From Tubulanus polymorphus (Eukaryota; Animalia; Nemertea): a stretch of DNA of 64,000 nucleotides. A program made the translations under genes and the position numbers. This document shows positions 7,951 through 37,007 of the stretch, piece by piece. The notes under the pieces are model-generated. The model worked only from the letters and a program-made list of their open reading frames with translations, was not told the origin of the DNA and searched no databases. Location of the stretch: NCBI RefSeq assembly GCF_964204645.1, contig NC_134027.1, positions 15,718,485 through 15,782,484 of the forward strand, read 5' to 3'. How positions within the stretch are numbered: the stretch's first letter is position 1; the number at the start of each line of letters is the position of its first letter.

Positions 7951-7956
7951 AATAAG

Positions 7957-11586: not shown

Positions 11587-11604
11587 TTATTTAAGAAAAA
11601 AAAT

Positions 11605-13317
11605 TGATTACTTATATTTGATCATATCACTAATCCAAAAATAATTGCACTTACAACTGTAACTAAAAATAAGATTATATGTTCAGCAGCAAAGTTAAGA
11701 ATATTCCCAGCAGATTTCAATATAAACCAACAATCGATGCTATAATTCCAGGTAAAGCTGCAGATTTTTTAGATAGTTCCCATAGATATTTTGCTAATTT
11801 TTTAAACCATCTTTAACTTTATCTTGTATTGAATTAGTACTCGGTGGTTTATCCGGTTTGTAAGGTGTAGGTGTAGATTTTAATAAATTTGATATTGCTA
11901 AACCTATTGTTGTAAATAACATAGTTACAGCTGTTAGAATTGAAAGAATTGTTATTCTTTCTAACTTAAATAATAATCTTATTCTATCTTTCAATGATAT
12001 TTTAGAATCTGGTTTTATTATTAAATCTTTAAAAATAACTTTTAATTTCTTAATATGATGAAGATCAAATGATTTTAATAATATATCTCTTTCTTTTTCC
12101 TGTATATCTTTGTTATATTTTAAATCATCAATTTCTTTTTCTAAAGCTAACTTTCTGCTTTCATAATCAGGTTCCTCGATTAATTGAAGATCTCTATTTA
12201 ATTCTAATTGTTTTAATTCTTCATTTGCATCAGTTAATTCTTTTTCTAACATGGTTATTTTAGAAAATCTCATCTTAATATTAGCAATTTTACCAGATGA
12301 TTCTTGCATACCTTTAATTTCTCTACGCGCTTGTTCAGGAAATATTCTTCTTCATTTAAATCAAGTAATCCTTTTTCTAATAAATGTTGTATTTGATTTG
12401 TTCCAGTTTCAGTACCAGGTGTATCTAAAATACTATTCATCTCTTATTCAAATGAATGAACTGTATCTAACATGCTATCAAAATATTTTACTAATTGTAA
12501 TTGACTTGAACCGTTATCAATTTATTGAATATCTCTTCTCGATGTTTCTGGTGAAGTTCTTAATTTATCTAATCGATCTCCATACTCTTCCATTTCTGGA
12601 TCAACATAAGTAGGATTTAAATTTGGATTTTTAAATGGTGAATATTTGTTAATAGCAATACCAACATTTGGTTCTTCTTCATTTATTCTATCGAGTGCAT
12701 TCCATATAATTCTGAGAAATTCTGTACCACCTTATGAATGTTCAATTGAAGATCCTGCTCGCATTTCAGGATGGTACAGATCTTCTTGCCCCATTTTAGA
12801 GAATTGAATTGATACAGTTTTGTTATTTAATTCAACATTATAGTACCATGAATCATTTTTAAATTCTAAATTATTCATGAAATGTATGTCATCTTTTGCT
12901 AACTTGTTCTGAAATATCTTCTGGTTCAATGTTATCTGTTACATTTTTTGGTAATAATTCTTCAATAACTGTATTTGTTACACTATGTTTTATGTATAAT
13001 AATTCTTTTTTGAATTCAGGGTTTTCTGTTCTTTCTAATCTATTAATTAAATCTTTTCTTTCTGGTCTAGTTTTGATTATTATCTCATCGCGGGTTCTTA
13101 AATAATCTATTAATTTTTCACTTGTTTCAGTATCATCTTTAAATTCATCGTAATCAAATAATATAGGCCCACTAGAATCATCTTCATCATTATTTAAATT
13201 ATTATTATATGCTGATCCACCATCATTATCAATATTAGTTTCATTAAAATCAGGTTGTGGTTCGTCCCCTATACCAGGGGTGTCACCAAAAGTATCCATT
13301 GGAATATCTTCTTCCAT
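11605..13317 (-). pseudogene. Coiled-coil/hydrophobic membrane-active protein, copy A (frameshifted)
   Basis: The C-terminal region is near-identical to 28760-29782. The N-terminal ~230 codons are divergent. Confidence 0.8.
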
Positions 13318-13332
13318 TTATATAATAAAAAA

Positions 13333-16300: not shown

Positions 16301-17545
16301 AATATTTTTGATATGAGTTATTACATCATTAATGTTAAATTTCATTCACGTTTAAAATCAAATCCAAAACATATACTCGGTCCAACAGTTATATTCATTT
16401 ATATAGTGAAAAAATTATTCTTTACATCTTATAACTAATTCATAAATTACAGGAAAGTTATTCAAATCAATTAAGTAACCATTATGATTTCTTATTTCTA
16501 ATCTAAAATTATTAAATTTAGGAATACATGGTTTGAAATCACACTCAGCTAAATTATAACTTATTTGTGTTCCATATTGTTTAACATTTTTTAGTGGTAA
16601 AATATTTAATATACTAGACTTACAAATTGTATCTTTAGTTGCTTCAAATGTTTTTCAATTAAATTACAATTAATATAAAAGTGTGTAAAAGGCAATATAT
16701 TTGAATTACCGTCTATGTTTCCTGTAACAGTATCTGGTGCAATTCCTAGCAATTTAGCTAATGGTTTTTTTTTGCCATAAATGCGTTTTGACTTTCATCA
16801 TATACCTTTATTTTAATTTTTGTTGTGCTATCTCTTTTTATAAATCTAATAACAAATTTATTATCTCTTCTAATTTTCAACCGTGCTCTTCGATTAATTT
16901 CTTGAGCTAATGTTTCTAAATTATATAATCCTGGTTTTAAAATTAGATGAAACCATTTATTTATATTTCTAATATGAATTAAAAAAGTATTATCTTCAAT
17001 AGTTTTATCCGTTATATTATATAAAAAGAATTACATAAACTTACATTTACTAATTTTAAATCTACGCAATTCTTAAATTCTCTATCTAATTGTACTAGTA
17101 AATTATGCGATTTAGAATTTAACAGTTTTCTAGAATCAACATATATTCCATATTCTTTTAATTTATCTTGCATTCATTTTACATATTTTTTTATTCGAAA
17201 TCTATATCATGGTGCCCTTTTTCACTCATACCTTTGTATATGAAATAGAAATCACCAGAACATAATTCTTCTAGATCTTCACTAGATAATCTATGAAATC
17301 TATCTGGTAAATATGTTCTTAATTTATATTTATTTCCTTTTAACCCTTCATATTCTAAGTGAATAACTCATTTATCTCCATATTTATTAGCAGCTGTATC
17401 AATATTTGTAATTAAATATTTCTTATGAATTGTTAGTTCATTTAACTTCTTAAATTTATAATCCACAGATTTTACATTTGTAGTATCTTTAATTCTATCT
17501 AGAAATGATTTGTTGTTCTCACTGTGTACTTGTTTACTCTCCATT
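13333..17545 (-). pseudogene. Decayed copy A structural block (homologues of the B genes at 26838, 26388, 25921, 25699, 25342, the penton and the SSB-like gene)
   Basis: ORF fragments 13333-13569, 14132-14494 and 15824-16042 match B proteins. Nucleotide collinearity continues to 17545. Confidence 0.85.
14751..15191. other. Foreign higher-GC insertion replacing the middle of a Polinton A gene
   Basis: Polinton homology stops at ~14750 and resumes at ~15192. The sequence between has no match in copy B. Confidence 0.55.
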
Positions 17546-17611
17546 TTAATAACAAATTTTTATTAAAATTGAATTATAGCCGATTACCATGTAATAATCC
17601 TTTTCATAATC

Positions 17612-19684
17612 TCATTCTCTTTTGACTCTTCTCTTTTTAGATTTCAAGTATTCATCTAAATTACAACCATAAGCAACTGTGTGTATACCATCATCGAGAA
17701 TATATCTTTTATCATCGAAAGGATTCAAACTTATCTTATCTATCTCTTCAATAAACATTTCATGATCTTCTGATCTTAAAACATTTCATCTTATGTTTTC
17801 TAACTTCTTCATTAAATATACAATTGATGTAATCTTTGAAATGAATATTCTTTTTCACTTCGCTTTTGGTAATTCCTTTCAATTTCTTTGATTCATGAGT
17901 TTTAGTTTTATATGAATACATTTTAGATCGAATTTCAATGAACTCTATCATTTCTTCACCTCCTAATTCATCCTTTAACTTCCCTGGCACCTTTTTATTA
18001 TCATTGTTAAACAATTCATGATCCTTAGGATAATTACTAAAGTCAAAATGATGTTTTAATGTTTTTAAATCATCTGTTATGTTATTAGTTTTTATCTTTA
18101 ATATGTAACTGTCAGTATCAAAATATAAGATTTCTATATGCTTTTGATATGATATGATATGATTTATTTGCATAAAAGATTGTTACAGAGTTTACAAATG
18201 AATACACAATATATGGAAAACAATGTACCAATAAATTATGCGAGGAATTAGAAGCCAAAGTTGGCTTAATCTAGTCCTAATCCCTCGTCCATACACTCTC
18301 ACATACACACAGACATATACACCAATTCACATTCATTCCTAGTTTACCAAACAAACCAAATATACATAATATACATAGACAATTGCAGATAAAGTAATGT
18401 GGCACGTTATAAAAGATTACACAGATAATTAATAAGTGGAACGAAGATAACGCTGAAGCTGAATTTTGAAGTTGGATATCGAGTCTAGATATTTTAATTT
18501 CTCTGGTAAACTATTCCAGAATTTCGCTCCTTGAATTTTCATAGATGTATACTTGTATTTAGATTTAGCAAATTCTATTGATAAGGCCATAGGCCTGCGA
18601 CTAGAACGAAGATTTTGGGTGTTCCTGGGAATGAAAAAATCTTTGAAAATAGTCGGTAATAAAAGGTTGATACTTAAGAAGGCAAGCGATCCAATTTGAT
18701 GTCTGTAAATGTCATCCAGTTTAAGAATTTCTAATTTCCTGAAAATCGGGGATGTATGTTCAAGCCAATCTGAACGAGTGATTATCCGAAGGGCTTTTTT
18801 CTGAAGGATGTATAATGGTTGCAAATAAATTTTACAGGCATTTCCCCAAATAAGATTGGCATAATGTAGGTGTGAGTGAACGAAACAATAGTAGAGATTT
18901 TTTAGAATTTTTTCTCCAAAATGAGGTTGTAATACGTTATAATAGAATTCATACATTAATAACTTTGATATTTCTAAAACTGAAGCACCAACATAGATTG
19001 GTTTATTAAATTTCATAGAAGTTCTCCTCATTTTAACTGCAGCTAAATTTTCATCAAATATTCTGTTACCTATGAACTTAGGATATGTTTGTAAATGTCT
19101 AATTCTTCTACCATTACTAACTAACTCAATATCATTTCTATTTCTAATATTTTCACAAGTTTTTCCATAGAATTCATTATTCATTAACTTGAAGAAATCT
19201 TTCTCAAAATCAGTTTTAGCTTTAGTTAGCTTGTTTGTAGGATATCATTGGAAAAAGGTAGTTTTTGCCAGATGTTTGAAAGAATGTTTTGAGGTGAATT
19301 TTGATGCGGGGTTGGCGGTGTTTGTTTTGAAAATAAAGAATATGCGTGGTCGTAATACGTTGTAATACGAGGTTGTAATGCGAGAATGTAATACGTTATA
19401 ATAGAATTCATACATTAATAACTTTGATATTTCTAAAACTGAAGCACCAACATAGATTGGTTTATTAAATTTCATAGAAGTTCTCCTCATTTTAACTGCA
19501 GCTAAATTTTCATCAAATATTCTGTTACCTATGAACTTAGGATATGTTTGTAAATGTCTAATTCTTCTACCATTACTAACTAACTCAATATCATTTCTAT
19601 TTCTAATATTTTCACAAGTTTTTCCATAGAATTCATTATTCATTAACTTGAAGAAATCTTTCTCAAAATCAGTTTTAGCTTTAG
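17612..19684 (-). pseudogene. polB: Protein-primed PolB C-terminal fragments, copy A (interrupted by a LINE and a duplication)
   Basis: KLMNNEFYGK (present twice), KPIYVG, YFDTDS, KLKGI and DDKR motifs. Confidence 0.9.
18146..18909 (-). mobile_element. 5'-truncated CR1/L2-group LINE inserted in PolB A
   Basis: RT C-terminal motifs LYYCFVHSHLHY...WG, LQKKALRII, HTSPIF and WNSLP, followed by AATAAA and a (CATAT)n tail at 18146-18170. It is in frame with PolB, giving the chimeric ORF 18429-19184. Confidence 0.88.
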
Positions 19685-19810
19685 TTAGCTTGTTTGTAGG
19701 ATATCATTGGAAAAAGGTAGTTTTTGCCAGATGTTTGAAAGAATGTTTTGAGGTGAATTTTGATGCGGGGTTGGCGGTGTTTGTTTTGAAAATAAAGAAT
19801 ATGCGTGGTC
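18928..19810. repeat. 424-bp tandem duplication spanning a PolB/LINE junction
   Basis: 18928-19351 repeats at 19387-19810 (offset 459), separated by a 35-nt filler. Confidence 0.92.
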
Positions 19811-20718: not shown

Positions 20719-20770
20719 TATTTCAATATTCATATTTGTGTGAGTTAGATTTTTAAACATTAAAAGTGTT

Positions 20771-23700
20771 AAAGTAAAATTTATAAAATCTGAATATAAA
20801 TCAATATATAATATAAATTCTCATTCACAACATATTATATCGAAACAACATATAGATGATAAATTAGATAAATGTTATAATGAAGTAAAAACTAAAATAG
20901 AAGAGAAATATTTTGAAGGATCTGGTTTAATATTTGATGAGATAATATTTATGACTTTACATGTTTATAACACAAAATATAATAAGTTAACTAAATCAAA
21001 ACCAATTGATGAAAATAATGTATCATATTATAAAGAACCAGATATTGAAGCATCGAGTTATATTAAACTACCATTTAAAACTAATGCTGTTATAAATGTA
21101 CAAAATGATGATGATAAATGTTTTCTATGGACAATTATAAGTTGTTTACATCCAACAGAAGATATTACACATAGTTTTAGATTAACTCATTACAAACCAT
21201 TTGAAAATAATTATAAGATAGATCCTGTTAGAATGTAGAAGTATCCTGTTAGAATTAAAAACATCCCAAAGATAGAAAGAGATAATAATTTAAGAATAAA
21301 TGTATTTGATTTAATCAAATTACCAAATACAAAAGGTAACAACATAAAACATTATACATTAGAACCTTTATATCTATCAAAAGATTATGATTCAAATGAT
21401 GTTATAGATATACTATATTATGAGAATCATTATAGGTGGATTAAACAAATCGATTTATTTTTTAAATCAGAAAATGATCACCATAAAATATATCTTTGTA
21501 GAAAATGTTTACATAAATTCAGTAATGAAAGTACATCATTAAATCATAAACAATTATGTGAAAATCATGATTATTGTAAATTAGTTTTACCAAATGAAAA
21601 GGATAAAATATTAGAATTAAAAAAATATGATTACAAAAATAAAGTACCATTTGTAATATATGGAGATTTTGAATCATTAAATAAAGAATTAACTGATCAA
21701 GATAGAAAAGAAATATATTATAAAAGAAAGAAATTAAATTCTAATGAAAATGATTTTTCAGATGAACCACCAAAAACAAATACAATTAAAAAGATTCATC
21801 AATCAGCTGCAGCTTTCGGGTTATATATAAAATCTGATTATCCAGAACTAATTGAAAGTGAATATTATGATTATAGAAATGAAAATGTTATCAATCATTT
21901 TTGTGACTTATTAATTGAATATGAAATAAGATTTAGTAAATTATTGAATACAAATATAGAAATTATAATGACAGAAGAAGATAAAGAAGCATTTGCGTTT
22001 GCAGATAAATGTTATTATTGTGAAAATATATTTAATTATAAAGATAAAAAAGTAAGAGACCATGATCATTTGAACGGAAAGTTTAGAGGCGCTGCACATG
22101 AGAATTGTAACTTACAAGCTAAGAAAATTAACTTTGTACCAGTTATATTTCATAATCTATCAGGATATGATGCACATTTATTCATCAAACAGTTATGCCA
22201 TAAAATAGAAGAAATCAATAATGAAATAGAAATATTAAATTCAAATAGATCAAAAGATAAAATACCAACTTATAAATTTAGAATGTTAGCTAAAACATCT
22301 GAGAATTATATATCATTCCAATTTGGGTGTTTAAGATTTATAGATTCATATAGATTTTTAAATAGTTCATTAGATAACTTATCAAAATCATTAGTTGATG
22401 ATGAATTAAAAATATCAAAGCAACACTATCCAAATAATGATGATTTCCAATTAATGAGATATAAAGGAGCAATTCCATATTCATTTTATAAATCACATAA
22501 TGATTTTAATATAACTGAATTATTGAAAGAACAATTCTATGATGAATTAAAAAATGAATATGTTAAAGATGAAGTATATAATAGAACATTGAATATTTGG
22601 AATCATTTCAAAATAGAAAATCATGGACAATTAGTAGATTTATATTTAAAATCAGATGTATTATTATTAACCGATATATTCGAAAGGTTTAGAGATGTAA
22701 ACCTAAAATATTTTAACATTGATCCTTGTCATTGTTATTCAAGTCCAGGATTAACATGGGATTGTGGATTAAAATTTACGGATATAAAAATGGATTTGTT
22801 AACAAATATAGATCAATTATTATTATTTGAAAAATCTATAAGAGGAGGAGTTTCAGGTGTATTAGGTGATAGATATTTCAATGTAAATGAAAACCCTGGA
22901 TATAAGTTATTATATATAGATGCAAATAATTTGTATGGTTGGGTAATGATGGAACCACAACCTTATGGAGTATTTGAATTAACTGAAGTTTTACAGAATG
23001 AAAATAATGATAAATTTGATTGGAAGAAAAGAATTCTAGATATTGCAGATGATTCAGATACTGGTTACTTCTTTGTTGTAGATTTAGAAATTACCAAAAA
23101 AGATCAAATTACCAAAAAAGAATTAAACCTGAAAATCATATTCATACAGAAAAGTTAATGGTAACTCAAGAAGATAAATATAATTATGTAGTACATTATA
23201 GAATGTTAAAGTTTTATTTGAATCAAGGAATGGTTCTAAAAAAAGTACATGGATATATTTCATTTAGTCAATCAAAGTGGTTAGAAAAATATATAGATTT
23301 TAACACCAAACAGAGAACTGAAGCTAAAACTGATTTCGAGAAAGATTTCTTCAAGTTAATGAATAATGCATTCTATGGTAAGACTTGTGAAAATATTAGA
23401 AATAGAAATGATATTGAGTTAGTTAGTAATGGTAAAAGAATTAGACATTTACAAACATATTCTAAGTTCATTGGTAACAGAATATTTGATGAAAATTTAG
23501 CTGCAGTTAAGATGAGAAGAACATCAATGAAATTTAATAAACCAATCTATGTTGGCGCTTCAGTTTTAGAATTATCAAAATTACTAATGTATGAATTCTA
23601 TTATAATGTATTACAACCACTTTTTGGAGAAAAGCATATAGAAATATTATATTTTGATACTGACGGTTACATATTAAAGATAAAAACTGATAACATAACT

Positions 23701-24159
23701 GATGATTTAAAAATATTAAAACATCATTTTGATTTCAGTAATTATCCTAAAGATCATGAATTGTTTAGCAATGATAATAAAAAAGTTCCCGGTAAATTCA
23801 AAGATGAATTAGGCGGTGAAGAAATGATTGAATTCATAGGTATTAGATCTAAAATGTATTCATATAAAACTAAAGAACATGAAGCTAAAAAGTTAAAAGG
23901 AATAACCAAAAGTGTAGTAGAAAAGAATATTCATTTCAAAGATTACATCAATTGTATATTCAATGAAGAAGTTAGAAAACATAAAATGAGATGTTTAAGA
24001 TCTGAAGATCATGAAATGTTTATTGAAGAAATTGAAAAGATAAGTCTAAACCCATTTGATGATAAAAGATATATTTTAGATGATGGAATTCATACAGTTG
24101 CTTATGGTTGTAATTTAGATGAATACTTAAAAGAGAAGAAACAAAAGAGAACGAGATAA
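20771..24159 (+). pseudogene. polB: Protein-primed family B DNA polymerase (5'-truncated, with stops and frameshifts)
   Basis: EGSG, INVQNDDDKCFLW, YGDFES (ExoI), an endoVII-like insert CYYC..VRDHDH..G..RGAAH..CN, FHNLSGYD (ExoII), YLKSDV, YIDANNLYG, KLMNNAFYGK, YFDTDG and DDKR. Confidence 0.95.
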
Positions 24160-24211
24160 TGAAAAGAATTCTAACGTGTTAATCAAATTTTAATAAAAAT
24201 ATGTATTATAA

Positions 24212-24550
24212 ATGGAGAGTAAACAAGCGAACAGTGAGAACAACAAATTACTTCTAGATAGAATAAAAGTTACTTCAAATGTCAAATCTGTAGATTATAA
24301 ATTCAAAAAGTTAACAGAATTAACAATTCATAAGAAATATCTAATTACAAATATTGATACAGTTACTAATAACTATGGAGATAAATTAGTTATACACTTA
24401 GAATATGAAGGATTAAAAGGAAATACATATAAATTCAGAACATATTTACCGGATAGATTTCATAGATTATCAAGTGAAGATTTAGAAGAATTATGTTCTG
24501 GAGATTTCTATTTCGTATACAAAGGTAAGAATAAAAAAGGGCACCATTAA
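24212..24550 (+). CDS. Small Polinton protein, putative OB-fold ssDNA-binding protein
   Basis: Pattern FKKLTEL...Y.I......YG.KL...L...YLPDRF...VYKG. Lies directly downstream of PolB and is conserved in copy A. The fold is inferred. Confidence 0.6.
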   Translation: MESKQANSENNKLLLDRIKVTSNVKSVDYKFKKLTELTIHKKYLITNIDTVTNNYGDKLVIHLEYEGLKGNTYKFRTYLPDRFHRLSSEDLEELCSGDFYFVYKGKNKKGHH

Positions 24551-24582
24551 ATAGATTTCGAATAAGAAAATATGTAAAATAA

Positions 24583-25325
24583 ATGGTAGAATTTAAAGAA
24601 TACAGAATATTTGTTGATTCTAGAAGACTTACAGATTATAAATCACATAATTTACTAGTACAATTAGATAGAGAATTCAAGAATTGTGTTGATTTAAAAT
24701 TAGTAAATATAAGTTTATGTAATTCTTTTTATAATATAACGGATAAAACTATTGAAGATAATGCTTTTATGATTCATATTAGAAATGTAAATAAATGGTT
24801 TCACCTAATTTTAAAACCAGGATTAGCTCAAGAAATTAATCGAAGAGCACGGTTGAAAATTAGAAGAGATGATAAATTTTTAATTAGATTTATAAAAAGT
24901 GATAGCACAAATAAAACTAAAATAAAGGTATATGATGAAAGTCAACATGCATTTATGGCAAAAAAACCATTAGCTAAATTGCACCAGGAATTGCACCAGG
25001 TACTGCTACAGGAAACATAGATGGTAATTCAAATATAATACCTTTTACACACTTTTCTATTTATTGCAATTTAATTGATCCTACAAAAACTTTCGAAGCA
25101 ACTAAAGATACAATTTGTAATTCTAGTATATTAAATATTTTGCCATTAAAGAATGTTAAACAATTTGGAACTCAAATAAATTATAATTTAACTGAATGTG
25201 ATTTTAAACCTTGCATTCCTAAATTTAATAATTTTAGATTAGAAATTAGAAATCACAATGGATACTTAATTGATTTGAATAACTTTCCTGTGATATATGA
25301 ATTAGTTATAAGATGTAGAGAGTAA
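24583..25325 (+). pseudogene. Minor capsid protein (penton, single jelly-roll), frameshifted
   Basis: N-terminal IFVDSR...L...FKN...LKL.....NSFYNI, an IYCNLI motif and C-terminal EIRNHNGYLIDLNNFPVIYEL. Comparison with copy A shows a frameshift near 24980 and an 18-bp deletion near 24820. Confidence 0.75.
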
Positions 25326-25341
25326 TTTTTTCACTATATAA

Positions 25342-25698
25342 ATGAATATAACTGTTGGACCGAGTATATGTTTTGGGTTTGATTTTAAACATGAGAAAGA
25401 AATGAAATTTAACATTAATGATGTAATTACACATATTAAAAATATTGCATTTTCTAATGAAACAACATTTGAGTATGAAACAACAATAGATAAAGAAACT
25501 TTAAATGTAGAAAAGATTACTAATTTAATTAGAGAATCTTTAAGATTTTATGAATTAGATGAAGATTTTATCATCGATGATATTAAAAAAATAATAATTG
25601 AAATATATACAAATGAAACTAGTAATGAAATAAATGTTGAATTAATCATCACTAAGATAACTAAATATTTTGATGATAGTAATTTTTTCGATAAATAA
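25342..25698 (+). CDS. Polinton hypothetical acidic protein
   Basis: Open ORF starting at TAAATG, conserved in copy A (~16050-16398). Confidence 0.7.
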   Translation: MNITVGPSICFGFDFKHEKEMKFNINDVITHIKNIAFSNETTFEYETTIDKETLNVEKITNLIRESLRFYELDEDFIIDDIKKIIIEIYTNETSNEINVELIITKITKYFDDSNFFDK

Positions 25699-25920
25699 AT
25701 GAGTGATAATAAGTGGATAATAACTGGATTATATAATGGAGCATTACTATCAGTTGGAACTGTTGGTTATTCAATGGTATTAAAAAAAGTATTTAAAATG
25801 GGAAGTGTTAATGTTGATAGATTTGATATAAATGATATTTTAAAATTAACATTAGCAGTTACTTTATCTAATTTAACTATTGATTATTTAGAAAAGCAAA
25901 AATATATTCCTCCAATATAA
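25699..25920 (+). CDS. Small hydrophobic Polinton protein
   Basis: 73 aa with two hydrophobic helices and an ending DYLEKQKYIP. Conserved in copy A. Confidence 0.75.
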   Translation: MSDNKWIITGLYNGALLSVGTVGYSMVLKKVFKMGSVNVDRFDINDILKLTLAVTLSNLTIDYLEKQKYIPPI

Positions 25921-26367
25921 ATGCATAATTATTTTCCTAAATTAATGGCTTCTGCAATTATAACTATTATAGGATCGGCAATTGTTAACGCTTTAGCATT
26001 TACTGGTGGTGGATGTTTATTTAAACATATTGATAAAAATGGTTCATTAGAAGAACAAAAAAGACATAACTTAGCATTAGAGAAATACAATAAAGCAGCA
26101 GAAGAATATAGAGAAAAGAGACAAAACTATATGGATTATATTAACAAGGAATTATATGATCAGAAGATTTCACATAGAGATTTTCAATCAGTTGATGATG
26201 CAATGAGTTTATATAACGCAGTAACAAATAAAGAAAAATTACATCTATACAAACCTAAATTATCAGATTATTATACCCCAAGTAATGAACAGAAGAAATA
26301 TGAAATAATTTGGATTTTAGGTGGAACAGTTATTGTTATATTTGTTGCTTATAAGTTTACTAATTAG
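25921..26367 (+). CDS. Polinton membrane-associated protein (N-terminal hydrophobic helix, coiled coil, C-terminal TM)
   Basis: MASAIITIIGSAIVNALAFTGG...EEQKRHNLALEK...PKLSDYYTPS..QKKYE followed by a TM segment. The true start is probably Met9. Confidence 0.8.
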   Translation: MHNYFPKLMASAIITIIGSAIVNALAFTGGGCLFKHIDKNGSLEEQKRHNLALEKYNKAAEEYREKRQNYMDYINKELYDQKISHRDFQSVDDAMSLYNAVTNKEKLHLYKPKLSDYYTPSNEQKKYEIIWILGGTVIVIFVAYKFTN

Positions 26368-26387
26368 TAATTTTTTTTGCTAAATAA

Positions 26388-26821
26388 ATGGAAGATAAAG
26401 TTGATAATATTGACATTATTCCTCATGATATAAATAAAACTAAATTTAAAACATATTTAGAAAAACAAATATTAGAATTTGAAAGTGACTTAAAGATAAA
26501 AAAGAAAAAATATTTAAAAGTAAAATTATATATTATTTGATTATAAGTGGTTCGGTTACAATTAGTTCTGTAATAACATTTCTAGCAATATTCAGTCCAT
26601 TAACACCTTCAGCTATATCAATTGGTGTATTAGGATTAAGTTCAAGTGTTTTAACCGGTATAAGTTCAAAATTAAATATAAAAAGTAATAAAGAAAAAAT
26701 TAAAACTAATATAAAAGAAATTAATAAATTGAAGAATACACTAGATTAAATAATAAGTTTAAATGGTCATATAACAGTTGAGGAACAAGATAAATTATTA
26801 AAAGAATTAATAAATTATTAA
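26388..26821 (+). pseudogene. Two-TM Polinton protein with a premature stop
   Basis: ATG at 26388 (TAAATG), a hydrophobic hairpin, and TAA at 26747 in frame with the continuation seen in copy A. Confidence 0.65.
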
Positions 26822-26837
26822 TTTATTAATTATATAA

Positions 26838-28162
26838 ATGGCAGATAGTTTTCCAAAAGCTTTCCAATATAATAAATCAATTAAATATAATATTCCAGCA
26901 ATAGATTTTGATAAAGATATTACATATAGAAATGAAGTTTTAAATTCATTAATTGATTTATATATTTATGTTACTGAAAGTAATAATTTTCATGTAAAGA
27001 TGGAAAATATATTTCATGTGTATACAATTCATTTCAAAAATTTAAATGAGGCAAAACAATGGTTATTAAAATCTAATATGAAGTATTGGCAGAACCAATT
27101 AAATTTTGCTGTTTAATGCGCAACAACAGGATGTGGAATTAGTTGGAATGATCATTTAAACAAACCAAGTTTACCATTGATGTTATCACTTTTTAGATTT
27201 CATACATATTTTCAAATAAAATTAATATTAGATGAATTAGAATGTCCTTTACCAGGTTCAAAATATTTTAAAGAATTGTATAATAATATTAATTTTTCTA
27301 AGTTTTATAAAATATGTAATGAATTTAATATTAATTCAAATAAAGATTTTAGATCAAATATTGGAACAATGGGTGGATTAGGAATATTATATACTAAAGA
27401 ATTTGGAAAAATAATGACAAATTCAGATATAAGAACACTAAATTGGAATGAATTACCAAAATATTATAATGATATACAACAACAAAACAATAATGGTTGG
27501 GTTAATTTCATTTTAGAAAATAGTGAAGGTTTTACTAAAGCTGGAATACAAAGAATAAATCAATCTATTAGAACTTATTTGATATGTATTTTAGGTGCGC
27601 AAGTTGAAACAAGATCCCCAATAATTGGAAATGATAACACTTCATTCGATGTGCAGAAACAGTTTAAAGTTTTATTGGAAGATTCCATTCACAATGATAA
27701 AAATAGATCGATTCCGGAAAACATTGTAAGATATCAAAATTATTTAGATAAATCACATATTAGATTAAATTATTGTATAGGCCCTAATCTATTTATTATT
27801 CTAATGATTTAGTATTAAAGGTGGGAAACATAATTGGTTATAATAATCTAATTAAAACTGCAACAATAAATAATTCATTTGGATTAAATGATATAAATAA
27901 AAAGATTATTACTGCTCCAAAATTAATGGAAGGTGAAAAAAATAAAAAACACATTCAATCAACTGAAACTAAAACTAATAATATTAAATTAAATAATGAT
28001 TATAAAATAAAAGATTACAATACATCAGAAAATATTAAAACTGATATTATTCAACATGATATAATTAAACTAAATGATGATGATAAATCCCATGAAAATG
28101 CTAAATTAGCTTTAACTTGTATAGGAATTGTAATCGGAGGAATATTATATTTTAAATTTTAA
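26838..28162 (+). pseudogene. Conserved Polinton protein (WQNQLNFAVxCATTGCG family) with C-terminal TM, disrupted
   Basis: Fragments 26838-27116, 27177-27812 and 27821-28162 join into one gene by comparison with copy A. Confidence 0.8.
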
Positions 28163-28178
28163 TTTTTGTATTATGTAA

Positions 28179-29782
28179 ATGGCAGAAGGCGGAGAAGATA
28201 TTCCAATGGAAAACAGGGGAAATAATGATGATGCCAATACTAACAATGATGATTATATGACTGCTGATACTAATATTGATAATGATAATGATACAACATA
28301 TAATTCTAATTTAGCAGATAGTGGTTCTAAAGCCCCATCAACAGAAGAAAATGATAGAAGAATTAGATCGAGAATACCTACTGAAAATTTAGACCCAGGT
28401 TTAGAAAGAGAAAATTATGAAAATTATGAATTTAAGTATGAATTTCAACATGTTTTTAAAGAATCTGGATATAATATAAATGATAGAGGCGCCAGACTTT
28501 TAGTGAAAAAATTAAAACTTTTTAAAGGTAAATATTATTATCGTTTGGATGGTGATTATTATATTGATATCACTGATCAAAGAACAAAACTAAATAAAAT
28601 ATTAGCGGAATCAACTTTGAGAAAATTAGGTTCAGATAAAATTAAGAGAATAAGTAATAGTAATGAAATAACTGATGTTACACAAGAAGAAAGAGATGAT
28701 AATATAAGAGTATTTAGTCAAAGAATTGATGACTTATTTAAAATAATCAAATATAATCCAGAAACAGAAATGGAAGATAGAGATTATAGAGATCGATTAA
28801 ATAAATTAAGATCTTCAACACCAGAAACATCGAGAAGAGATATTCAACAAATTGATAATGATTCAAATCAATTACAATTAGGAAAACATTTAGATAACTT
28901 ACTGGATACAATGAATTCATTTGAAGAAGATATGATTAGTGTTTTAGATACACCCGGTACTGAAACTGGAATAAATCGAATACAATCTTTACTAGAAAAA
29001 GGATTTCTTAAATTAACTGATGAAGAATTAGAAACATTTCCTGAAAAAGCACGTAGAGAAATTAAAGGTATACAAGTATCAGCTGATGAAAATGCTTATA
29101 TTAAGATGAGATTTTCTAAATTACCATGTTAGAAAAAGAATTAGCTATTGCAAATGAAAAATTAGAACAATTAAAATTAGATAAAAATCTTCAATTAATC
29201 GAGGAAGCTGATTATGAAAGCAGAAAGTTAGCTTTAGTAAAAGAAATAGATGATTTAAAATATAACAAAGAATTACAGGAAAAAGAAAGAGATATATTAT
29301 TAAAATCATATGATCTTAATCATATTAAAAAATTAAAAGTTATTTTTAAAGATTTGTTGATTAAACCAAATTCTAAAATACCATTAAAAGACAGAATAAG
29401 ATTATTATTTAAGTTAGAAGGTATAACAATTCTTTCAATTCTAACATCTGTAACTATGTTATTTACAACAATTGGTTTAGCAATATCAAATGCTTTAAAA
29501 TCTACTCCTACTCCAAATAAACCGGATAAACCCCAAGATAATAATTCTATACAAGATAAAGTTAAGGATGGTTTAAAGAAATTAGCAAAATATTTATGGG
29601 AACTATCTAAAAAATCTGCTGCAGCATTGCCAGGAGTTATTGCATCAATTGTTGGTTTTATATTGAAATCTGCAGGAAACATTATCAACTTTGCTGCTGA
29701 ACATATTATTTTATTTTTAATTACAGTTGTAAGTGCTATTATTTTTGGGTTAGTAAATATGATATCAAAAAATATCAAGTAA
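28179..29782 (+). pseudogene. Large coiled-coil and hydrophobic-helix protein (putative membrane-penetration protein), one frameshift
   Basis: ORFs 28179-29132 and 29126-29782 are contiguous in copy A (KMRFSKITMLEKEL). The C-terminus has ITILSILT...LPGVIASIVGFIL hydrophobic helices. Confidence 0.75.
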
Positions 29783-29822
29783 CCATGATCAAAAATAAAT
29801 AATTAATTTTTTTGTTAAATAA

Positions 29823-31070
29823 ATGAGTGGGAGTTATATAAATCCTTCTAAGAATCATAGAATATCTAATGCTATTAAAGCAGAAAGATCACATCATATA
29901 ATTACTCATAACCCTTCTAATATTAATCCCGATGAAACTTTATATGTTAGAATCCCTCGATTAACACAAAATACTTTTTATGTTCCAAATAGTATTTATT
30001 TATCAGCTGATATAAAAGTAATCGGTAATAGTAATAATTATGTTGTTGATAATGTTGGAAGATATTTGATTAAAAAATTAACTATAAAGATTGGTCCAGA
30101 AACAGTTTTCTCATTAGATGATTATAATTTATTTATGCATTATAAAGATTTATGGTTAACTAAAGAAAATAGAAATAATATGATATTTCAAGGCATCCAA
30201 TCAGAAAACCAAAATAAATTAAGATCTGAAGCCAATAATGCAGTAGTAACTAATGCTGTAGATAATTTGATAAAAAAGATTTATGGAAGCAAATATAAAA
30301 TTCCATTAGACTATGAATTGATAAATAATAATGCACCTTTATATAAATACGCAATTCAAGAAGATGTTATATTCGAAATAACATTTGCTCCTGTTAATGA
30401 AATTGTATTATCAAGTGTTGTTAAAGATATGAGTTATAAATTATCGAATATATGTTTACAATATGATTCAGTAACTGATGGAAATATTTCAAGTATAATT
30501 CAAACTCAATACAATCAAGGATTTTCATTATTATATGATTATATTGATAAATTTAAAACTGTAACTATTAATGCAAATGATGAAATTATTAATGAGAATA
30601 TTCACTTCCCAAGAAGATCTATTAAAGGTATATTAATATTTTTTACCATTGCAACATATACTAATGGTGCAATAAATGTTGATAATTATTATAATCCTGA
30701 AATAACAAAAGTAGAAATAACTATCGAAGGAATAGCAAATAAAATATTTTGTCAAGGAATGAGAATGATTGATCAATGGCCAGAAATTAGAAAACATTTT
30801 ATGAATGAAAAAGTAAAATCATCTGAAAATTGTAATATTAATCAAATTGATTATTATACCGGTAATAAATATGCATTATGGTTAGAATTTAGAACAACAG
30901 AGGATAATTCATTACATGGTTCTGGAATAAAATTACAAAACACTAAAGATGGAATACAATTATTCATGACAAAGAAAAAAGGAAGCCTAAATTTCAAAAT
31001 GCACATTTATATTATATCTGACGCGCAATTAAATATTGTAAATTCACAATTAGATAGTGTTATGTATTAA
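29823..31070 (+). CDS. Major capsid protein (double jelly-roll), intact
   Basis: 415-aa beta-rich ORF with N-terminal NPSNINPDETLYVRIPRL...VPNS.YLSA and C-terminal HGSG and DAQLNI, typical of animal Polinton capsids. It sits in the structural block. Confidence 0.8.
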   Translation: MSGSYINPSKNHRISNAIKAERSHHIITHNPSNINPDETLYVRIPRLTQNTFYVPNSIYLSADIKVIGNSNNYVVDNVGRYLIKKLTIKIGPETVFSLDDYNLFMHYKDLWLTKENRNNMIFQGIQSENQNKLRSEANNAVVTNAVDNLIKKIYGSKYKIPLDYELINNNAPLYKYAIQEDVIFEITFAPVNEIVLSSVVKDMSYKLSNICLQYDSVTDGNISSIIQTQYNQGFSLLYDYIDKFKTVTINANDEIINENIHFPRRSIKGILIFFTIATYTNGAINVDNYYNPEITKVEITIEGIANKIFCQGMRMIDQWPEIRKHFMNEKVKSSENCNINQIDYYTGNKYALWLEFRTTEDNSLHGSGIKLQNTKDGIQLFMTKKKGSLNFKMHIYIISDAQLNIVNSQLDSVMY

Positions 31071-31102
31071 AATTTTAACTTTAATAAATATTTATTATAT
31101 AA

Positions 31103-32188
31103 ATGGAAGGAGGTAAAGTATATAAACATATTCCATATATCGATACACATGAAAATAATGATGGTTTATATTATGTAATACCTTGTAATATAGCTTTGAT
31201 ATTTGATCCTATTTTCAAAATTTATAAAACTAAACTAATAGAAATCAATAATAATAAAAGTGGTGTTGTTGATAATTTAAGTAATGTAATTGATAATAAT
31301 GTAATACCTTCTACATCTAATAATGTAATTCCTACTACATCTAATAATGATAAGATTGAACCTGATATCAAAACCAAAAAGACAAATGAAAAATATTGTG
31401 ATGTATGTAAGAAATATATATCATATAAAAATTGGGCATCACATAAGAAATCAAATAAACATATAGAAAAAGAAAATAATAATGATAATAATATATCTGA
31501 TAATAATATAATAGATAATATCATAGATAATGTTAATACAATTGAAACAAATGATACCATAGATAATATAACAGATAATGTTGATACAATTGAAACTAAT
31601 GATAATGAAACAATTGATGATTCTAAAAAACATTGTAACATTTGTGATTTAGATATTTGTAAAGGTAATTTTTCTAAACATAAAAAATCTCAAGCGCATA
31701 TCGAAAATGAAAGGAAGTTAGAAGAACATGAAAAGAAATTAGAAGAAATAGAAATAAATAAAACGTGTCAATATTGTAATAAAAAAATTGAACCTGTTGA
31801 TGAAAATACTCATTATAAATCAAAGTTACATCTAATTAATGTTTATAAAATGGTGAGTATGATACCATTGTTAAATAACCCAAATAAATATATCAAATAT
31901 TATAATCCTAAAACTAACCAATATTATATATTCTATTAGTTGTTATTTGATAAATTATTAGCTTATGCAGAAGATAATCCTAAACAAATATATAAATTAT
32001 TATATTTAAGAAAAATAGATTTAAGTTATCTAATAAATAATTTTGGACATCATTTTGATATTGATTATGATGATTTTGATGAATACTTAGAAAAATTAAG
32101 AGAAAAAGCTAATTTACCTACTAATAATTATGTTAAGATGGCTCAATTAAAATCAATAAATCTACCTTTTAAGACTTTTGGTGAATAA
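31103..32188 (+). CDS. Multi-C2H2 (U1/matrin-type) zinc-finger protein; probable in-frame continuation past the TAG at 31937-31939
   Basis: Fingers CDVC...HKKSNKH, CNIC...HKKSQAH and CQYC...HYKSKLH with Asn/Asp repeats. ORF 31940-32188 follows in the same frame. Confidence 0.75.
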
Positions 32189-32268
32189 GATATAAACAGA
32201 GATGATTTTATAAATATATTAGAAACAAAATTAGAATAATTATTATAAAACTAATTTATATAACTATA

Positions 32269-32808
32269 TACTAGACGTACGAGTAAGAATCCAAGAATCC
32301 AAGAATCCAAGAAATCTTACTTTCTTACTCGTACGTCTAGTACATAAATATATATAATAGTTTTCATAAAAATTAAAAACATAAAATTATTAATCTAAGT
32401 ATAGAAATAGTTATAATATAATCTATTTTTATTATTATTAAGAGAAAACATATAATTTATTCATTTTTATATAATTCATTTAATAATTTATATATCTATA
32501 TACTAGACGTACGTAAGAATCTAAGAATCTTACTTTCTTGGCAAGAATCTTACTTTCTTACTCGTACGTCTAGTACATAGATATTTATAATAATTTTCAT
32601 AAAAATTAAAAACATAAAATTATTAATCTAAGTATAGAAATAGTTATAACATAATCTATTTCTATTATTATTAAGAGAAAACATATAATTTATTCATTTT
32701 TATATAATTCATTTAATAATTTATATATCTATATACTAGACGTACGTAAGAATCTAAGAATCTTACTTTCTTGGTAAGAATCTTACTTTCTTACTCGTTC
32801 GTCTAGTA
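32269..32808. repeat. Three hairpin-bearing tandem units (period ~233 bp) between the convergent gene blocks
   Basis: TACTAGACGTACG..TAAGAA...TTCTTACTCGTACGTCTAGTA at 32269, 32501 and 32734. The first has a perfect 21-bp stem. Confidence 0.92.
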
Positions 32809-32854
32809 CATAGATATATAAATTAGTTTCTATAATATTCAAAATTATAAATAG

Positions 32855-33466
32855 TTATTTTATAAATTTATATTCATATGGAAATTGTAATCTCAGTAAT
32901 AATTTTGAACCTTTATTATTCTTTAATTTATTCATATATTCATCATGTAATTCAGTAGGTATAATTTGATTTTCTTCCAATGATTGTTGCATAGATTTTT
33001 TATCTTTGTTATAAAATAAAACTAGAAATCGAATGTTTTCTCTAAAGTCTTTAACAATTGAATTATATTTTTGATTTAAAACCCATGTTGTTATCCCGAA
33101 ATGTCTTCCAGAGAAAGCTAAATAACATAACTCACTTTCTCTCACTTTTGAATCATGTAAATTTGCGCAATCATCTATAATGAATAATGTATTTGATCCT
33201 TTATAAGTATCAATTGCTATTTTAATAAAATTATCTAAATTTTCTTTTACTGTTTTAGGATTTAATATAATAAACTTTTTTATCTTAACTATATCTCTAT
33301 TATATGTTTTATTCATTTCATAAGTAGGACAGAATAATATTATATTATCAAAATGATTCTTATAAATAGTTTCTAACAAGTCTAATATGAAATGTGTTTT
33401 ACCACAATTGGTTACTCCAGTTATTAACATATTGTGCGGTTCAAATATGGATAAATCTTTATTCAT
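32855..33466 (-). CDS. A32/FtsK-family genome packaging ATPase, intact
   Basis: Walker A GVTNCGKT, Walker B LFIIDD, arginine finger GRH and sensor LNQ. Confidence 0.92.
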   Translation of the reverse strand: MNKDLSIFEPHNMLITGVTNCGKTHFILDLLETIYKNHFDNIILFCPTYEMNKTYNRDIVKIKKFIILNPKTVKENLDNFIKIAIDTYKGSNTLFIIDDCANLHDSKVRESELCYLAFSGRHFGITTWVLNQKYNSIVKDFRENIRFLVLFYNKDKKSMQQSLEENQIIPTELHDEYMNKLKNNKGSKLLLRLQFPYEYKFIK

Positions 33467-34577
33467 TTATTATTTTAATTTTACTAGATAAAATCCATTC
33501 ATTAAACTTATCATCGTATCCTTTATATTTCACCAACGAATATTTTTTTCCTTTAAGAGTTTTTGTTTTCAATACTTTTTCTATTTTGTATTCTATTTCA
33601 TCTGGATTTGGTACAAGTGATAATTCTTGTTCATAGAAATAACCTAATATTTCTTCATCTTTTAAATCTTCTAATTTATAAACAAATGGTTTAGTTAATA
33701 TTATCTTTTTAATCTTGAATATTTCTTCAGTAAAATTTGGGGTATAACCTTTATAAAAGGTTTTTCTATATTTAGATATTCTTACGTGTTGTCCAATTTT
33801 AAATTTAGGTTCTCCAAAATCATGTGTAACAAATGCTCCATATAAATTATTTCATACTATTTCCGAATTATCTTCTTTTCTAGCTTGTATAGGTTTCATA
33901 TTTATAGAACAATGTTTAGAATTATTATAACCTTTCACTAAATCATCTAATACATCGATATATTCATATGTTTCATTAGCAGTAAAATATTTCCACATTC
34001 TAGTTTTCAATGTTTTATTAAATCTTTCTATAATAGATGCTTTTTTATCTGAATGTGTTGAAAAATATTCTACATCGTTATCAGATAATAGTTTTTTGAA
34101 ATGTTTGTTATAAAATTCCTTACCTTCATCAAATTGTATCTTATCTGGAATAGCTTCTTTAAATATTGATTTAAAAGCATTTGTTACTTCTATACCAGTT
34201 TTATTTTTGATTGGAATTGACCATGCGTATCTACTGAATATGTCTATAACATTTAATATCCAGAAATATCCTTTGTTGTATTCTTCTAAGTTCTTCATGT
34301 CAATTAAATCTGCTTGCCATTGTTGATCGATATATGAAACCATAACTTTTCTTGTTAAATAAGTTTTATCCATTTTCTTGTGGATTTGATATGTTGGTTG
34401 ATTTTGTAACCATGATTTTAGTTCACTATATTTTATATCACCGTGTGGGTGCCATACGGCACCATTACCATTTTCATTATCAGATTTAATTTTATTCCAT
34501 AATTCTGAAACGTTAGAATATGATACTTCACTTTCTGGGTTATAATATAAATCTCTTAAATATTGTTCTTTTTTCAT
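33459..34577 (-). pseudogene. Polinton rve integrase with C-terminal chromodomain; single TGA at 33852
   Basis: QADLIDM, IQFDEGKEF and IERFNKTLK catalytic motifs. Beyond the stop the frame reads FKIGQHVRIS...FYEQEL...YKIEKVLK...LVKYKGY...NEWI. Confidence 0.93.
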
Positions 34578-34598
34578 CTTATTTTAATCCATTAATAA

Positions 34599-34955
34599 TT
34601 ATTTAGATTTAGTTTCAATGGCTTTATTATTTGACTTATTTTCTGGTATGATAGGTTTATTATCATTGGAATCATTATTGTTATAATCAGATTTATACTT
34701 ATATTTATATATTACACCGGATAATATAATAACTGTTACTAATCCAATTGTAATATATAATTTATAATTACTTCCAGCATTAGAAGAATCAGATGGATTA
34801 TTATTTGAATCAATATCAGATAAAGTCTGTGATTCATTTATATCAGTTAATTTCTTTTTCTTAGCTTTTTTTAATTCTGAAGATCTTTTACCTAATTCTC
34901 TTGCCCATATAATTTGTTTCTCGGATCTAGGCTTTTTCTTAACGCCATCACTCAT
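34599..34955 (-). CDS. Small basic single-TM Polinton protein
   Basis: Homologue of 7612-7950. Confidence 0.7.
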   Translation of the reverse strand: MSDGVKKKPRSEKQIIWARELGKRSSELKKAKKKKLTDINESQTLSDIDSNNNPSDSSNAGSNYKLYITIGLVTVIILSGVIYKYKYKSDYNNNDSNDNKPIIPENKSNNKAIETKSK

Positions 34956-35556
34956 TTATTTTAGTTAATTTTTGTTCTGATTCATTTTCTGTTTCGACGT
35001 TTGGTTGTAGTATAGCGTCATCTGTTTCGTTCTTACCTGATTTATATTCCATAGGCTTGATGTTCGAAAATGTTATGACACCAGTAGAAATTAATGTCAT
35101 AACCGATCCTAATTGAAATGAAGCGTAACCAACCCATTTTTGTAATTCAGTCATAACTAAGTAGTCATTTTTCAAATCACTATATAATTTATTTTCATCA
35201 TTAATTGGTATTAACTGGTTACATAATTTTGAATAACATTTGATAATACCATCTGAAATAGAATCATTTATTCTAGCTAATCTAGCTTCTTCGTAAATCT
35301 TAAAATATGTTATTACTTTATCGGGTTTCATAGAGTCTAGTTCTTGAAAAGTAATGATTCTATTTAAAAACTCCTTAGTTTTTCCACCGGCAATCAATAG
35401 TTCTAGATGATGCTTACAATATAAATAGTATTCATAATCTATATTACAATTAACTTGAGCACAATTAGTTACAACTGTATCTTTATTATCGCTTATACCC
35501 AAATCATCTAATGTCTTTTCAATATCAATACTATTCTTATTAGATTTCTTTGACAT
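34948..35556 (-). CDS. Conserved Polinton hypothetical protein
   Basis: Intact 202-aa ORF with a homologue in copy A. Confidence 0.75.
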   Translation of the reverse strand: MSKKSNKNSIDIEKTLDDLGISDNKDTVVTNCAQVNCNIDYEYYLYCKHHLELLIAGGKTKEFLNRIITFQELDSMKPDKVITYFKIYEEARLARINDSISDGIIKCYSKLCNQLIPINDENKLYSDLKNDYLVMTELQKWVGYASFQLGSVMTLISTGVITFSNIKPMEYKSGKNETDDAILQPNVETENESEQKLTKINE

Positions 35557-35803
35557 TTATATTAGAGAAAAAAAGCCAAAAAAAATATTATAAGTATTAT
35601 AAAATGATACCAGTATCTCTTTAGATTAATACTAGCTTAGTTAAAGGTAAAGAATTTTAGTATTAGTTATTGTTTTTTTAGTATTTTTTATTTGTGATAT
35701 AAAGTATTCTTTTTTGAAAAGAAAATATTAAAAATATAATAGAATTCACTAGCAGTTAAAGTTATTGTTTTTTCATCATATTTTATTCAAATTCTATTAT
35801 TCT

Positions 35804-36475
35804 TCAACCACTCATTAAAGACTCAACGTATTGTTCATTAGTTGGATCATTGTTCCATTGATCAATAAATTTCTTTGCCTTTGTTAACTGTTCTAAATAT
35901 AACTGTAAATCTAGTTTATTAGATTTAATTATGTTTTCCTTCTTTTCTAAAGGTCTTAGATTCTTCCAATTCCAAATAAGTTTTTTATTGTATTCATCAT
36001 TCATGTTAAATTTAGATATTGGTAACACGTGATCAATATGGTAATAATCCCCATAATTATCTATATTCATTTTATCATCGAATTGAAATATAATCCATGA
36101 TTTGAGAAATTCATCTGTACAACCCAACAAATTATATAATGTTTCTGAATGTGTTTCTTTGTTGAATAATTGTGTTAATCTAGATCTTAAGCATTGTTTT
36201 AATCTAAAATTAAGATCTGTTTGATATCTTTCTCACATATATTCTGTCATATAATCATTATAAGCTTCTCTATTATCTTCTCGGTATTGTTTGGTATATA
36301 GTTTAAAACAAGTTTTACAGCAATATTGAAAACCATCTTTGCTAATCTTACGCTCACTAAATTCTGTTAAAACTAATTTATCTAATTCACATTTAGAACA
36401 CTTCTTGTAGTATATATTCATAACACCACCAGTGTTATTTGTAATATTGATAGTTTGTGGTTGTTCTGATTCCAT
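35804..36475 (-). pseudogene. HNH/endonuclease VII-like nuclease with an N-terminal Zn ribbon (large-DNA-virus type), frameshifted
   Basis: KKCSKC...F...KDG...CKTC, then LGC...L..W...QF...M...NYG..YHIDHVLP.S.F...W.NLRPL...EN..KSNK. Confidence 0.85.
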
Positions 36476-36735
36476 TTATTATACATATTTTTTACTAAAT
36501 TGATTTTAGAAGTTCAATGATTTATATCATGTATTATTTCAATCACACTTTACTAACACTTTTAATGTTTAAAAATCTAACTCACACAAATATGAATATT
36601 GAAATAATGTTGTAAATATATACTTTTATATCTATTCTACAAGAGCTCACACTTTACTCACACTTTTATATTGAATAATCTATCAATTTATATGTTATTC
36701 ATATATATTTTATTCATGTATATAAATATTTTAAG

Positions 36736-37007
36736 AGTAATAGGGATAATGGGCTTTCATATCAAAGGTTGAAAGGGCTAGTGAGTAAAAAATGAAAAAT
36801 ATGAAAATAATAATAATTTCTATTTGAATTAGGAGTGAAACTCATATAAAATGAAAAATAAATTCGAGTGTGCGAGAATCATTTTTCATTTTATATGAGT
36901 TTCGCTACTAATTCAAATAGAAATTGTTATTATTTTCATATTTTTCATTTTTTATGAGCTCGACCTTTCGACCTTTGGTATGAAAGCCCATTATCCCTAT
37001 TACTACT
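36736..37007. repeat. ~270-bp foldback palindrome at the Polinton B terminus
   Basis: AGTAATAGGGATAATGGGCTTTCAT... (36736) is inverted at ...ATGAAAGCCCATTATCCCTATTACTACT (37007). The arms are ~125 bp. Confidence 0.9.

Follow-up and report, generated by a model that had tools for sequence, protein, structure and literature searches.

The Polinton described here lies in a 64,000-nucleotide stretch of the genome of the nemertean Tubulanus polymorphus (NC_134027.1, positions 15,718,485 to 15,782,484, forward strand), which is referred to as the window and numbered from its first letter. Two decayed, inverted copies of this element, A and B, are found in the window amid LINE (long interspersed nuclear element), BEL/Pao and IS1595-like elements. 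Copy B codes for a protein-primed DNA polymerase B (pPolB), to which an endonuclease VII-like domain is joined, and for an A32-type ATPase and an rve integrase, as well as for a putative major capsid protein of 415 amino acids (aa), a putative penton protein and about nine others. Nearly all of its readable gene starts carry the hexamer TAAATG, which is likely, from its sequence context, to be a poxvirus-type late promoter. Genomic reads cover copy B mostly at 400-900x and 90-99% identity, against 30-38x in the least covered bins, and this Polinton is therefore a many-copy family. The two copies and the genes of copy B are listed below, where handles beginning with L denote fetched loci and upstream positions are counted from the T of TAAATG.

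5247-18145: Polinton copy A, inverted, 80-89% identical to copy B and more decayed
20719-37007: Polinton copy B, decayed and with capsid genes; a LINE-like insertion truncates its left end
20951-24159 (+): protein-primed DNA polymerase B with endonuclease VII-like domain, fragmented, 5' end lost and start context unreadable (Pfam DNA_pol_B_2, E=6e-13; homologues of 930-1210 aa)
24212-24550 (+): small gene resembling an oligonucleotide-binding (OB) fold, weakly like single-stranded DNA-binding protein (SSB); TAAATG, A-run, T at -9 (Z 4-5 only, to several OB/SSB folds)
24583-25325 (+): penton (minor capsid) gene, broken; TAAATG, A-run, T at -9 (L001 homologue)
25342-25698 (+): 118-aa gene; TAAATG, T-run
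25699-25920 (+): 73-aa conserved hydrophobic gene; TAAATG, stop/start coupled, T-run
25945-26367 (+): conserved gene of about 140 aa; start supported by homology, initiator degenerate but T-run kept in copy B
26388-26820 (+): gene with two transmembrane segments (SLATT-like), broken; TAAATG, T-run (L001 homologue)
26838-28162 (+): conserved gene of about 440 aa, in three pieces; TAAATG
28179-29782 (+): conserved gene of about 485 aa with hydrophobic C-terminus, in two pieces; TAAATG, T-run
29805-29825 (+): putative major capsid promoter, with a T-run ending at -9, a spacer and TAAATG
29823-31070 (+): putative major capsid protein, intact, 415 aa (76 homologues; Pfam Capsid_N match at E=0.0026, short of the cut-off)
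31103-31939 (+): zinc-finger-containing gene; TAAATG, A-run
32855-33466 (-): A32-type packaging ATPase; TAAATG, A-run (Pfam Pox_A32, E=2e-12)
33480-34577 (-): rve integrase, truncated; start TAAGATG without T at -9, the same in copy A (Pfam rve, E=8e-10)
34599-34955 (-): 118-aa gene; TAAATG start within the 3' end of the upstream gene
34948-35556 (-): conserved 202-aa gene; TAAATG, T-run
35804-36475 (-): Zn-ribbon/HNH nuclease gene, in two pieces; TAAATG, A-run

TAAATG stands at 14 of the 15 copy B gene starts with an intact 5' end, with the ATG at 24212, 24583, 25342, 25699, 25921, 26388, 26838, 28179, 29823 and 31103 on the plus strand and at 33466, 34955, 35556 and 36475 on the minus strand. 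This agrees with an earlier note on the same DNA, as does the integrase exception, which begins TAAGATG (34577, -). On both strands of copy B, 45 of 684 ATGs lie in TAAATG, or 4.6% once the gene starts are removed, and the first ATGs of short spurious open reading frames (ORFs), a background that controls for ORF-calling bias, give 29 of 422 (6.9%); the binomial probability of 14/15 is 3e-18 and 7e-16 under these two nulls. None of the 21 non-Polinton ORFs of at least 100 aa in the window, which are GC-richer and partly spurious, starts with TAAATG. Copy A has counterparts for 11 of the 14 starts, and most of them keep the motif, as had been claimed: TAAATG is retained in 8, TAAAT with loss of the ATG in one, and two differ. 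At several exceptional starts, TAAAT is present one base further upstream.

One of the starts listed in the earlier note needs correction. TAAATG is indeed present at 25921, but the homologues of this gene begin at the ATG at 25945, and 25921 alone among the 14 starts lacks the T at -9. It is probably not a true start but a side effect of the stop codon before it. The initiator at 25945, degenerate in copy B, is complete in copy A, in L001, L006 and L008, and in nearly all reads of the family.

Among related Polintons, the TAAATG start is a clade trait of the close relatives. An alignment of 42 capsid proteins led to the fetching of 80 of 133 confirmed metagenomic loci, and in these either nearly every start of an element is TAAATG or nearly none is. 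When the count is confined to genes that are homologous to those of the window, closed at the 5' end and preceded by 40 bases of sequence, and the near-copies L003 and L011 are dropped, TAAATG is found at 38 of 43 starts in the 13 loci of the close relatives (GC 20-44%, capsid identity 47-75%), at 0 of 42 in AT-rich sister Polintons (GC<40%) and at 1 of 127 in GC-rich sisters. TAAATG is thus far commoner here than in the sister Polintons, other Polinton clades being one of the controls that the earlier note had named, and because the AT-rich sisters have none, AT richness does not account for the motif. A or G at -3 from the ATG is the usual, Kozak-like eukaryotic start context, and it is present in 37/42 AT-rich and 92/127 GC-rich sister starts, whereas TAAATG puts a T there. 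On a quick tree of the major capsid protein (59 rows with at least 300 aligned residues), which contains long branches, a single clade, with SH-aLRT (approximate likelihood-ratio test) support of 100, unites 13 TAA rows with one TGA row, and the start label changes 4 times against 13.6 when shuffled. Five distant AT-rich loci (L062-64, L069 and L078) also have TAAATG, at 10 of 11 starts and with T instead of A at -1; they were separated post hoc, after the motif had been seen, and pooling them with the AT-rich sisters makes that count 10/53. Of these, L062 and L064 lie outside the clade on long branches.

As to where else such capsids occur, no relatives of the major capsid protein were found in viral_contigs, and three short matches in prokaryote assemblies were not used. 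P0046 and its cluster, which are capsid homologues (53%) on short contigs, are filed under Bartonella sp. assemblies; they are probably carried-along animal DNA, which is a hint that other hosts carry the clade as well.

A second element precedes the hexamer. The 14 window starts were pooled with 49 from the 13 close loci, giving 63 starts that include orthologous genes and are hence non-independent. New here is a conserved T nine bases upstream of TAAATG in Polinton starts, present in 57 of the 63, compared with 34 of 105 non-start TAAATG sites in the same elements; in the AT-rich sisters, T is at -9 in 44% of 43 starts. T is also frequent at -10 (47/63) and -11 (43/63), A occupies -1 in 55/63 starts against 41/105 non-starts, and A peaks at -15/-14. 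In about 800 family reads across the capsid promoter, TAAATG and the -9 T have no variant reaching 5%, while 21 of the 161 positions of this stretch vary.

The bases just beyond this T come in two forms. A T-minus-A score at -14..-10 is bimodal over the 63 starts (19 A-rich, 33 T-rich and 11 intermediate), and a start's class is linked to its gene (p=0.012 by permutation within elements); the two upstream variants reported earlier are therefore real, but their proposed division between structural and other genes is not. The penton (2/2), packaging ATPase (5/5) and zinc-finger (2/2) genes lean to A, the 73-aa (4/4), 202-aa (4/5) and capsid (8/11) genes lean to T, and the SSB-like and HNH genes change class from element to element. 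The further proposal that the variants are late and intermediate promoters is not supported, because A-run starts keep the -9 T (17/19, compared with 31/33 T-run starts) and because the penton and the ATPase are of the A-run form. AAANAA, an intermediate-promoter core, is not enriched upstream (12/63 against 14.3 shuffled), and the A-run at -14..-10 is closer than the -26..-13 core of intermediate promoters. Davison and Moss in 1989 are reported to have found that late-promoter strength follows such a rule, a T-run making for a strong promoter and an A-run for a weak one. Weak and strong forms of one late promoter would thus be a better fit to the A-run and T-run starts than late and intermediate classes. 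Intermediate promoters are described as having an AT-rich core about 12 bp upstream of TAAA with no fixed consensus (PMC12917281).

These features bear on the possibility that the signal is read by the host, as a TATA-less Pol II initiator, as the polyadenylation signal (AATAAA) of the upstream gene, or as a translation signal in a compact AT-rich genome, and has converged on the poxvirus motif. Such an origin would suit the window starts that read AATAAATG (7/14) or TATAAATG (6/14). However, AATAAA is missing at half of the starts, the T-run lies upstream and not downstream, the T at -3 runs contrary to the purine of the sisters, and the motif persists at 40-44% GC (L007 and L008). Stop/start coupling explains exactly two window starts (25699 and 25921), as the earlier note had it, and just 4/63 overall. 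In addition, a TATA box touching the ATG would place the transcription start inside the gene. A signal of the host is, on these grounds, quite unlikely.

The vaccinia late promoter has TAAAT+G over the start codon and a conserved T ten bases upstream that is missing from intermediate promoters (PMC11980589), T residues are found 5-7 bp upstream of TAAAT in late promoters (PMC5294985), and the viral polymerase reads TAAA directly in the intermediate complex (PMC12917281). Poxvirus stretches of 20-22 kb each, about a tenth of each genome, were fetched, including Melanoplus sanguinipes entomopoxvirus (MSEV; L095) and L119, its sister on the helicase tree; the chordopox pool consists of twelve loci with 97 starts, largely orthologous and thus non-independent, from which near-duplicates were excluded. 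TAAATG begins 5-10 of 21-30 ORFs in the chordopox-type stretches, 15/22 in L095 and 10/24 in L119. In the 97 chordopox starts, T peaks at -10 (72) and is less common at -9 (48). A at -1 is found in 19 of 25 starts of the two entomopox loci, like the element, and in 38 of 97 chordopox starts, unlike it. A chordopox-trained matrix over -20..-6 separates element starts from non-start TAAATG with an area under the curve (AUC) of 0.85-0.90 at shifts -1..+1; at shift +1 the value is 0.88, whereas column-permuted matrices reach 0.66 (p=0.002) and AT content alone 0.72, and the reverse test gives 0.76-0.83, although all of these AUCs are inflated by the starts being intergenic and the non-starts mostly coding.

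The start signal therefore resembles the poxvirus late promoter in having TAAAT+G on the start codon, a T-rich stretch about ten bases upstream and A-rich sequence before it. It differs in having T at -9 rather than the chordopox -10, in its stronger fixation (57/63), in A at -1, and in its presence at about 90% of genes, compared with 20-70% in the fetched poxvirus stretches. In shape, it appears to be a late poxvirus signal with a spacing one base shorter than that of chordopoxviruses. The earlier reading of the motif as a poxvirus post-replicative promoter gains support from its fixation across the clade, its absence from AT-matched sisters, the anti-Kozak T at -3, the -9 T and the cross-recognition by matrices. 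The poxvirus early core AAAANTGAAAA is found in 0 of the 63 upstream regions. TTTTTNT is the poxvirus early terminator, and coding regions of the core clade contain 17 of them against 43.5 +/- 5.8 and those of the AT-rich sisters 30 against 46 +/- 6; its depletion was rejected as a discriminator because the sisters are depleted too and the second lineage is not.

A pox-like polymerase need not come from Poxviridae, since the helper might be another cytoplasmic element, namely a pox-related large DNA virus, a linear plasmid or a sister element with its own RNA polymerase, as yeast pGKL2 is for pGKL1. Yeast virus-like elements use a TAAAN initiator and poly(A) leaders (PMC6211774), and the pGKL1/2 pair resembles the Polinton in being linear, in its pPolB and, as is proposed for the Polinton, in that one element borrows the polymerase of another. 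The one-base offset from chordopox promoters would also be in keeping with such a helper. L117 (1-14768), a metagenomic viral contig, combines pox-type entry genes (G9/A16 and A28) with topoisomerase II and a helicase that is NPH-II-like but very divergent, and 5 of its 12 ORFs start with TAAATG, so that the helper could be a pox relative outside Poxviridae, but the upstream profile of L117 comes from 5 starts only. ATNTGA, the essential element 20-40 nt before TAAAN-type yeast starts, is not enriched in the Polinton (1/63 against 4.4 shuffled), nor are the African swine fever virus TATATA and mimivirus AAAATTGA motifs upstream of the 63 starts, and pGKL elements, unlike the Polinton, have neither capsid nor integrase. 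A helper from outside Poxviridae is accordingly held to be unlikely. Sequence archives contain 11 deep pox-like NPH-II proteins outside the chordopox and MSEV-containing clades. A further metagenomic contig, L101 (93.6 kb), is a poxvirus with Rap94, I7 protease and NPH-II and is sister to two entomopoxviruses.

Taken together, we consider it probable that the element has a helper, a poxvirus or near relative infecting the same cell, whose RNA polymerase transcribes it from its pox-type late promoters. No RNA polymerase, capping or transcription-factor family was found by Pfam in 61 element proteins (21 of copy B, where the 5' end is lost and several ORFs are unnamed, plus 19 and 21), in line with the earlier statement that the element encodes no RNA polymerase.

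Several observations weigh against this conclusion, beyond the inflated AUCs. The element proteins contain no pox-specific families and do not match the fetched poxvirus stretches of about 20 kb, and no helper virus was identified either by a promoter-pattern scan of viral_contigs or through a contig reached from a kinase gene. The conserved T is one base closer to the start than in chordopoxviruses (T at -9 in 57/63 against 48/97), an offset that the cross-test AUCs leave undecided, and in the two entomopox loci T is at -9 in 15 of 25 starts with a diffuse profile. Neither the 63 element starts nor the 97 poxvirus starts are independent, as they come from orthologous genes and related genomes. 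Both window copies are broken, and the integrase has no signal in either, although that of L002 does. Finally, because sisters with the same gene set have Kozak-like starts and the five distant loci have TAAATG, the trait must have been gained or lost several times.

Both of these leads to a helper were rejected. The degenerate promoter-pattern scan gave 2 loci with TAAATG at 1/24 and 0/12 starts, which is chance, and the contig reached via the L001 deoxynucleoside kinase (37%) has TAAATG at 1/19 starts and is hence not the helper. Deoxynucleoside kinases are found in two core-clade elements (L001:10343-10981, minus strand, and L007:2898-3377, minus strand) and do not detect each other by tblastn, which suggests that each acquired this gene, a typical one of large DNA viruses, independently.

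That both window copies are broken, that 3 of 11 motifs are lost in copy A and that no helper was seen would also suit a relic, in which the ancestor was a poxvirus satellite and the present copies have spread in the genome without a helper, their promoters inherited but unused. However, the motif is kept across elements whose capsids are only about 50% identical and whose spacers have diverged, and at the capsid promoter the family reads show it unchanged amid the variable neighbouring positions. Continuing selection is needed to account for this, and a relic is very unlikely.

If a poxvirus-type helper does read these promoters, free element DNA in the cytoplasm of a helper-infected cell would be transcribed by the helper's late machinery. 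Transcription would initiate within the AAA, and a non-templated poly(A) leader would supply the A at -3 that the DNA lacks. The capsid gene and a number of conserved core genes, with their T-run starts, would have strong promoters, and the penton and ATPase genes, with their A-run starts, weak ones, matching the amounts needed. The element would replicate by its own pPolB, package itself and integrate by its own rve integrase. The wider proposal, that this clade of endogenous animal Polintons comprises poxvirus virophages that stay silent until the late machinery of invertebrate poxviruses yet to be discovered activates them, and that possibly protect the host, we regard as evenly poised. The antiviral role raised in the earlier note is not supported at present.

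Like Mavericks/Polintons (Polintoviricetes; adintoviruses, Starrett et al., PMC8502044), the element combines pPolB, rve integrase and A32-type ATPase with putative major and minor capsid genes, has inverted termini and is integrated in many copies in an animal; unlike them, its clade has pox-type rather than Kozak-like starts, and Pfam detected no adenain-type protease in copy B or L001. Such starts are reported neither in the accessible part of PMC8502044, which contains no promoter analysis, nor in that of PMC8097293. For vertebrate Mavericks, a virophage-like immunity has been proposed, with iridoviruses as possible activators (PMC8097293). Comparable in the proposed helper are the polinton-like viruses (PLVs) of entomopoxviruses, AHEV_PLV1/2, CBEV_PLV1 and Ca_PLV1 (Barth et al., PMC11296320), which occur in entomopoxvirus occlusion bodies and are likewise small, capsid-coding and proposed poxvirus hyperparasites. 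By their description they are nevertheless set apart: they are about 12 kb, have a cysteine protease and no rve integrase, and are linked to their helper by co-purification, whereas the present element is an endogenous, high-copy rve Polinton linked by its promoter. The main text of PMC11296320, to which this statement is limited, contains no analysis of promoters, motifs or TAAAT.

Mavirus/EMALE04 and the Sputnik/Guarani virophages have the late promoter of their helper before nearly all genes and no RNA polymerase of their own, and Mavirus also has pPolB, rve integrase and integration (PMC10945749; PMC6510173). Among endogenous types, only that with the motif is induced by the giant virus (PMC10945749). 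They differ in having protist hosts, mimivirus-family helpers, other motifs and a helper dependence shown by experiment, whereas the present element has a putative Polinton-type capsid and its dependence is inferred. No report of pox-type promoters in Polintons was found in the literature searched, the supplements of PMC11296320 and of its preprint being outside its scope.

Some other features of the element should be noted, beginning with its termini and repeats.

20719-20778: what remains of the left terminal inverted repeat (60 bp), matching 36549-36606 in inverted orientation at 97%
36549-37007: right terminal region with a palindrome of 124-nt arms (36736-37004); many reads exit the element at about 37004
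32237-32851: three palindromic repeats of about 233 bp each, between the convergent gene blocks

Polintons/Mavericks have a target-site duplication of 6 bp. Each arm of the terminal palindrome matches the vaccinia early core AAAANTGAAAA (PMC5294985), at 36788 (+) and 36952 (-), and precedes no gene; such matches are common in the AT-rich loci. Other palindromes, unrelated in appearance, occupy the same place between blocks in L002-L004 (L002:3720-3837; L004:3163-3275), and the inter-block palindromes possibly serve as an RNA 3'-end or replication signal. Two duplicated pPolB fragments are interleaved with LINE-like sequence between the head-to-head copies (18910-19696), and a fragment of a third, more divergent element (10189-10512, +) contains a broken SSB-like homologue with TAAATG, T at -9 and A at -1. 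At about 29771, exactly where the gene of about 485 aa ends, 16 genomic reads enter a long A tract, which may be an A-run variant, an artefact or the end of a retrocopied transcript. For the L001 homologue of the penton, mavirus penton forms the top Foldseek rows (E=0.005, from a low-confidence model) and the atlas matches are to viral proteins; the single-sequence fold of the homologue is poor (pLDDT, a model-confidence score, of 39). The major capsid protein has no sequence match in the PDB.

It has long been asked whether the Polintons of animals live as autonomous viruses, as transposons or as virophages, and we know of no virus established as activating them. A clade whose starts have changed from the host type to probable poxvirus late promoters points to a likely class of helper. 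Such a swap suggests repeated switches between nuclear and helper-driven transcription within one element family, and pox-type promoters predict poxviruses in animals where none has been described. If these Polintons are indeed poxvirus virophages, start-codon context alone would sort Polintons into helper-dependent and host-transcribed lineages and would flag animals with unknown poxviruses.

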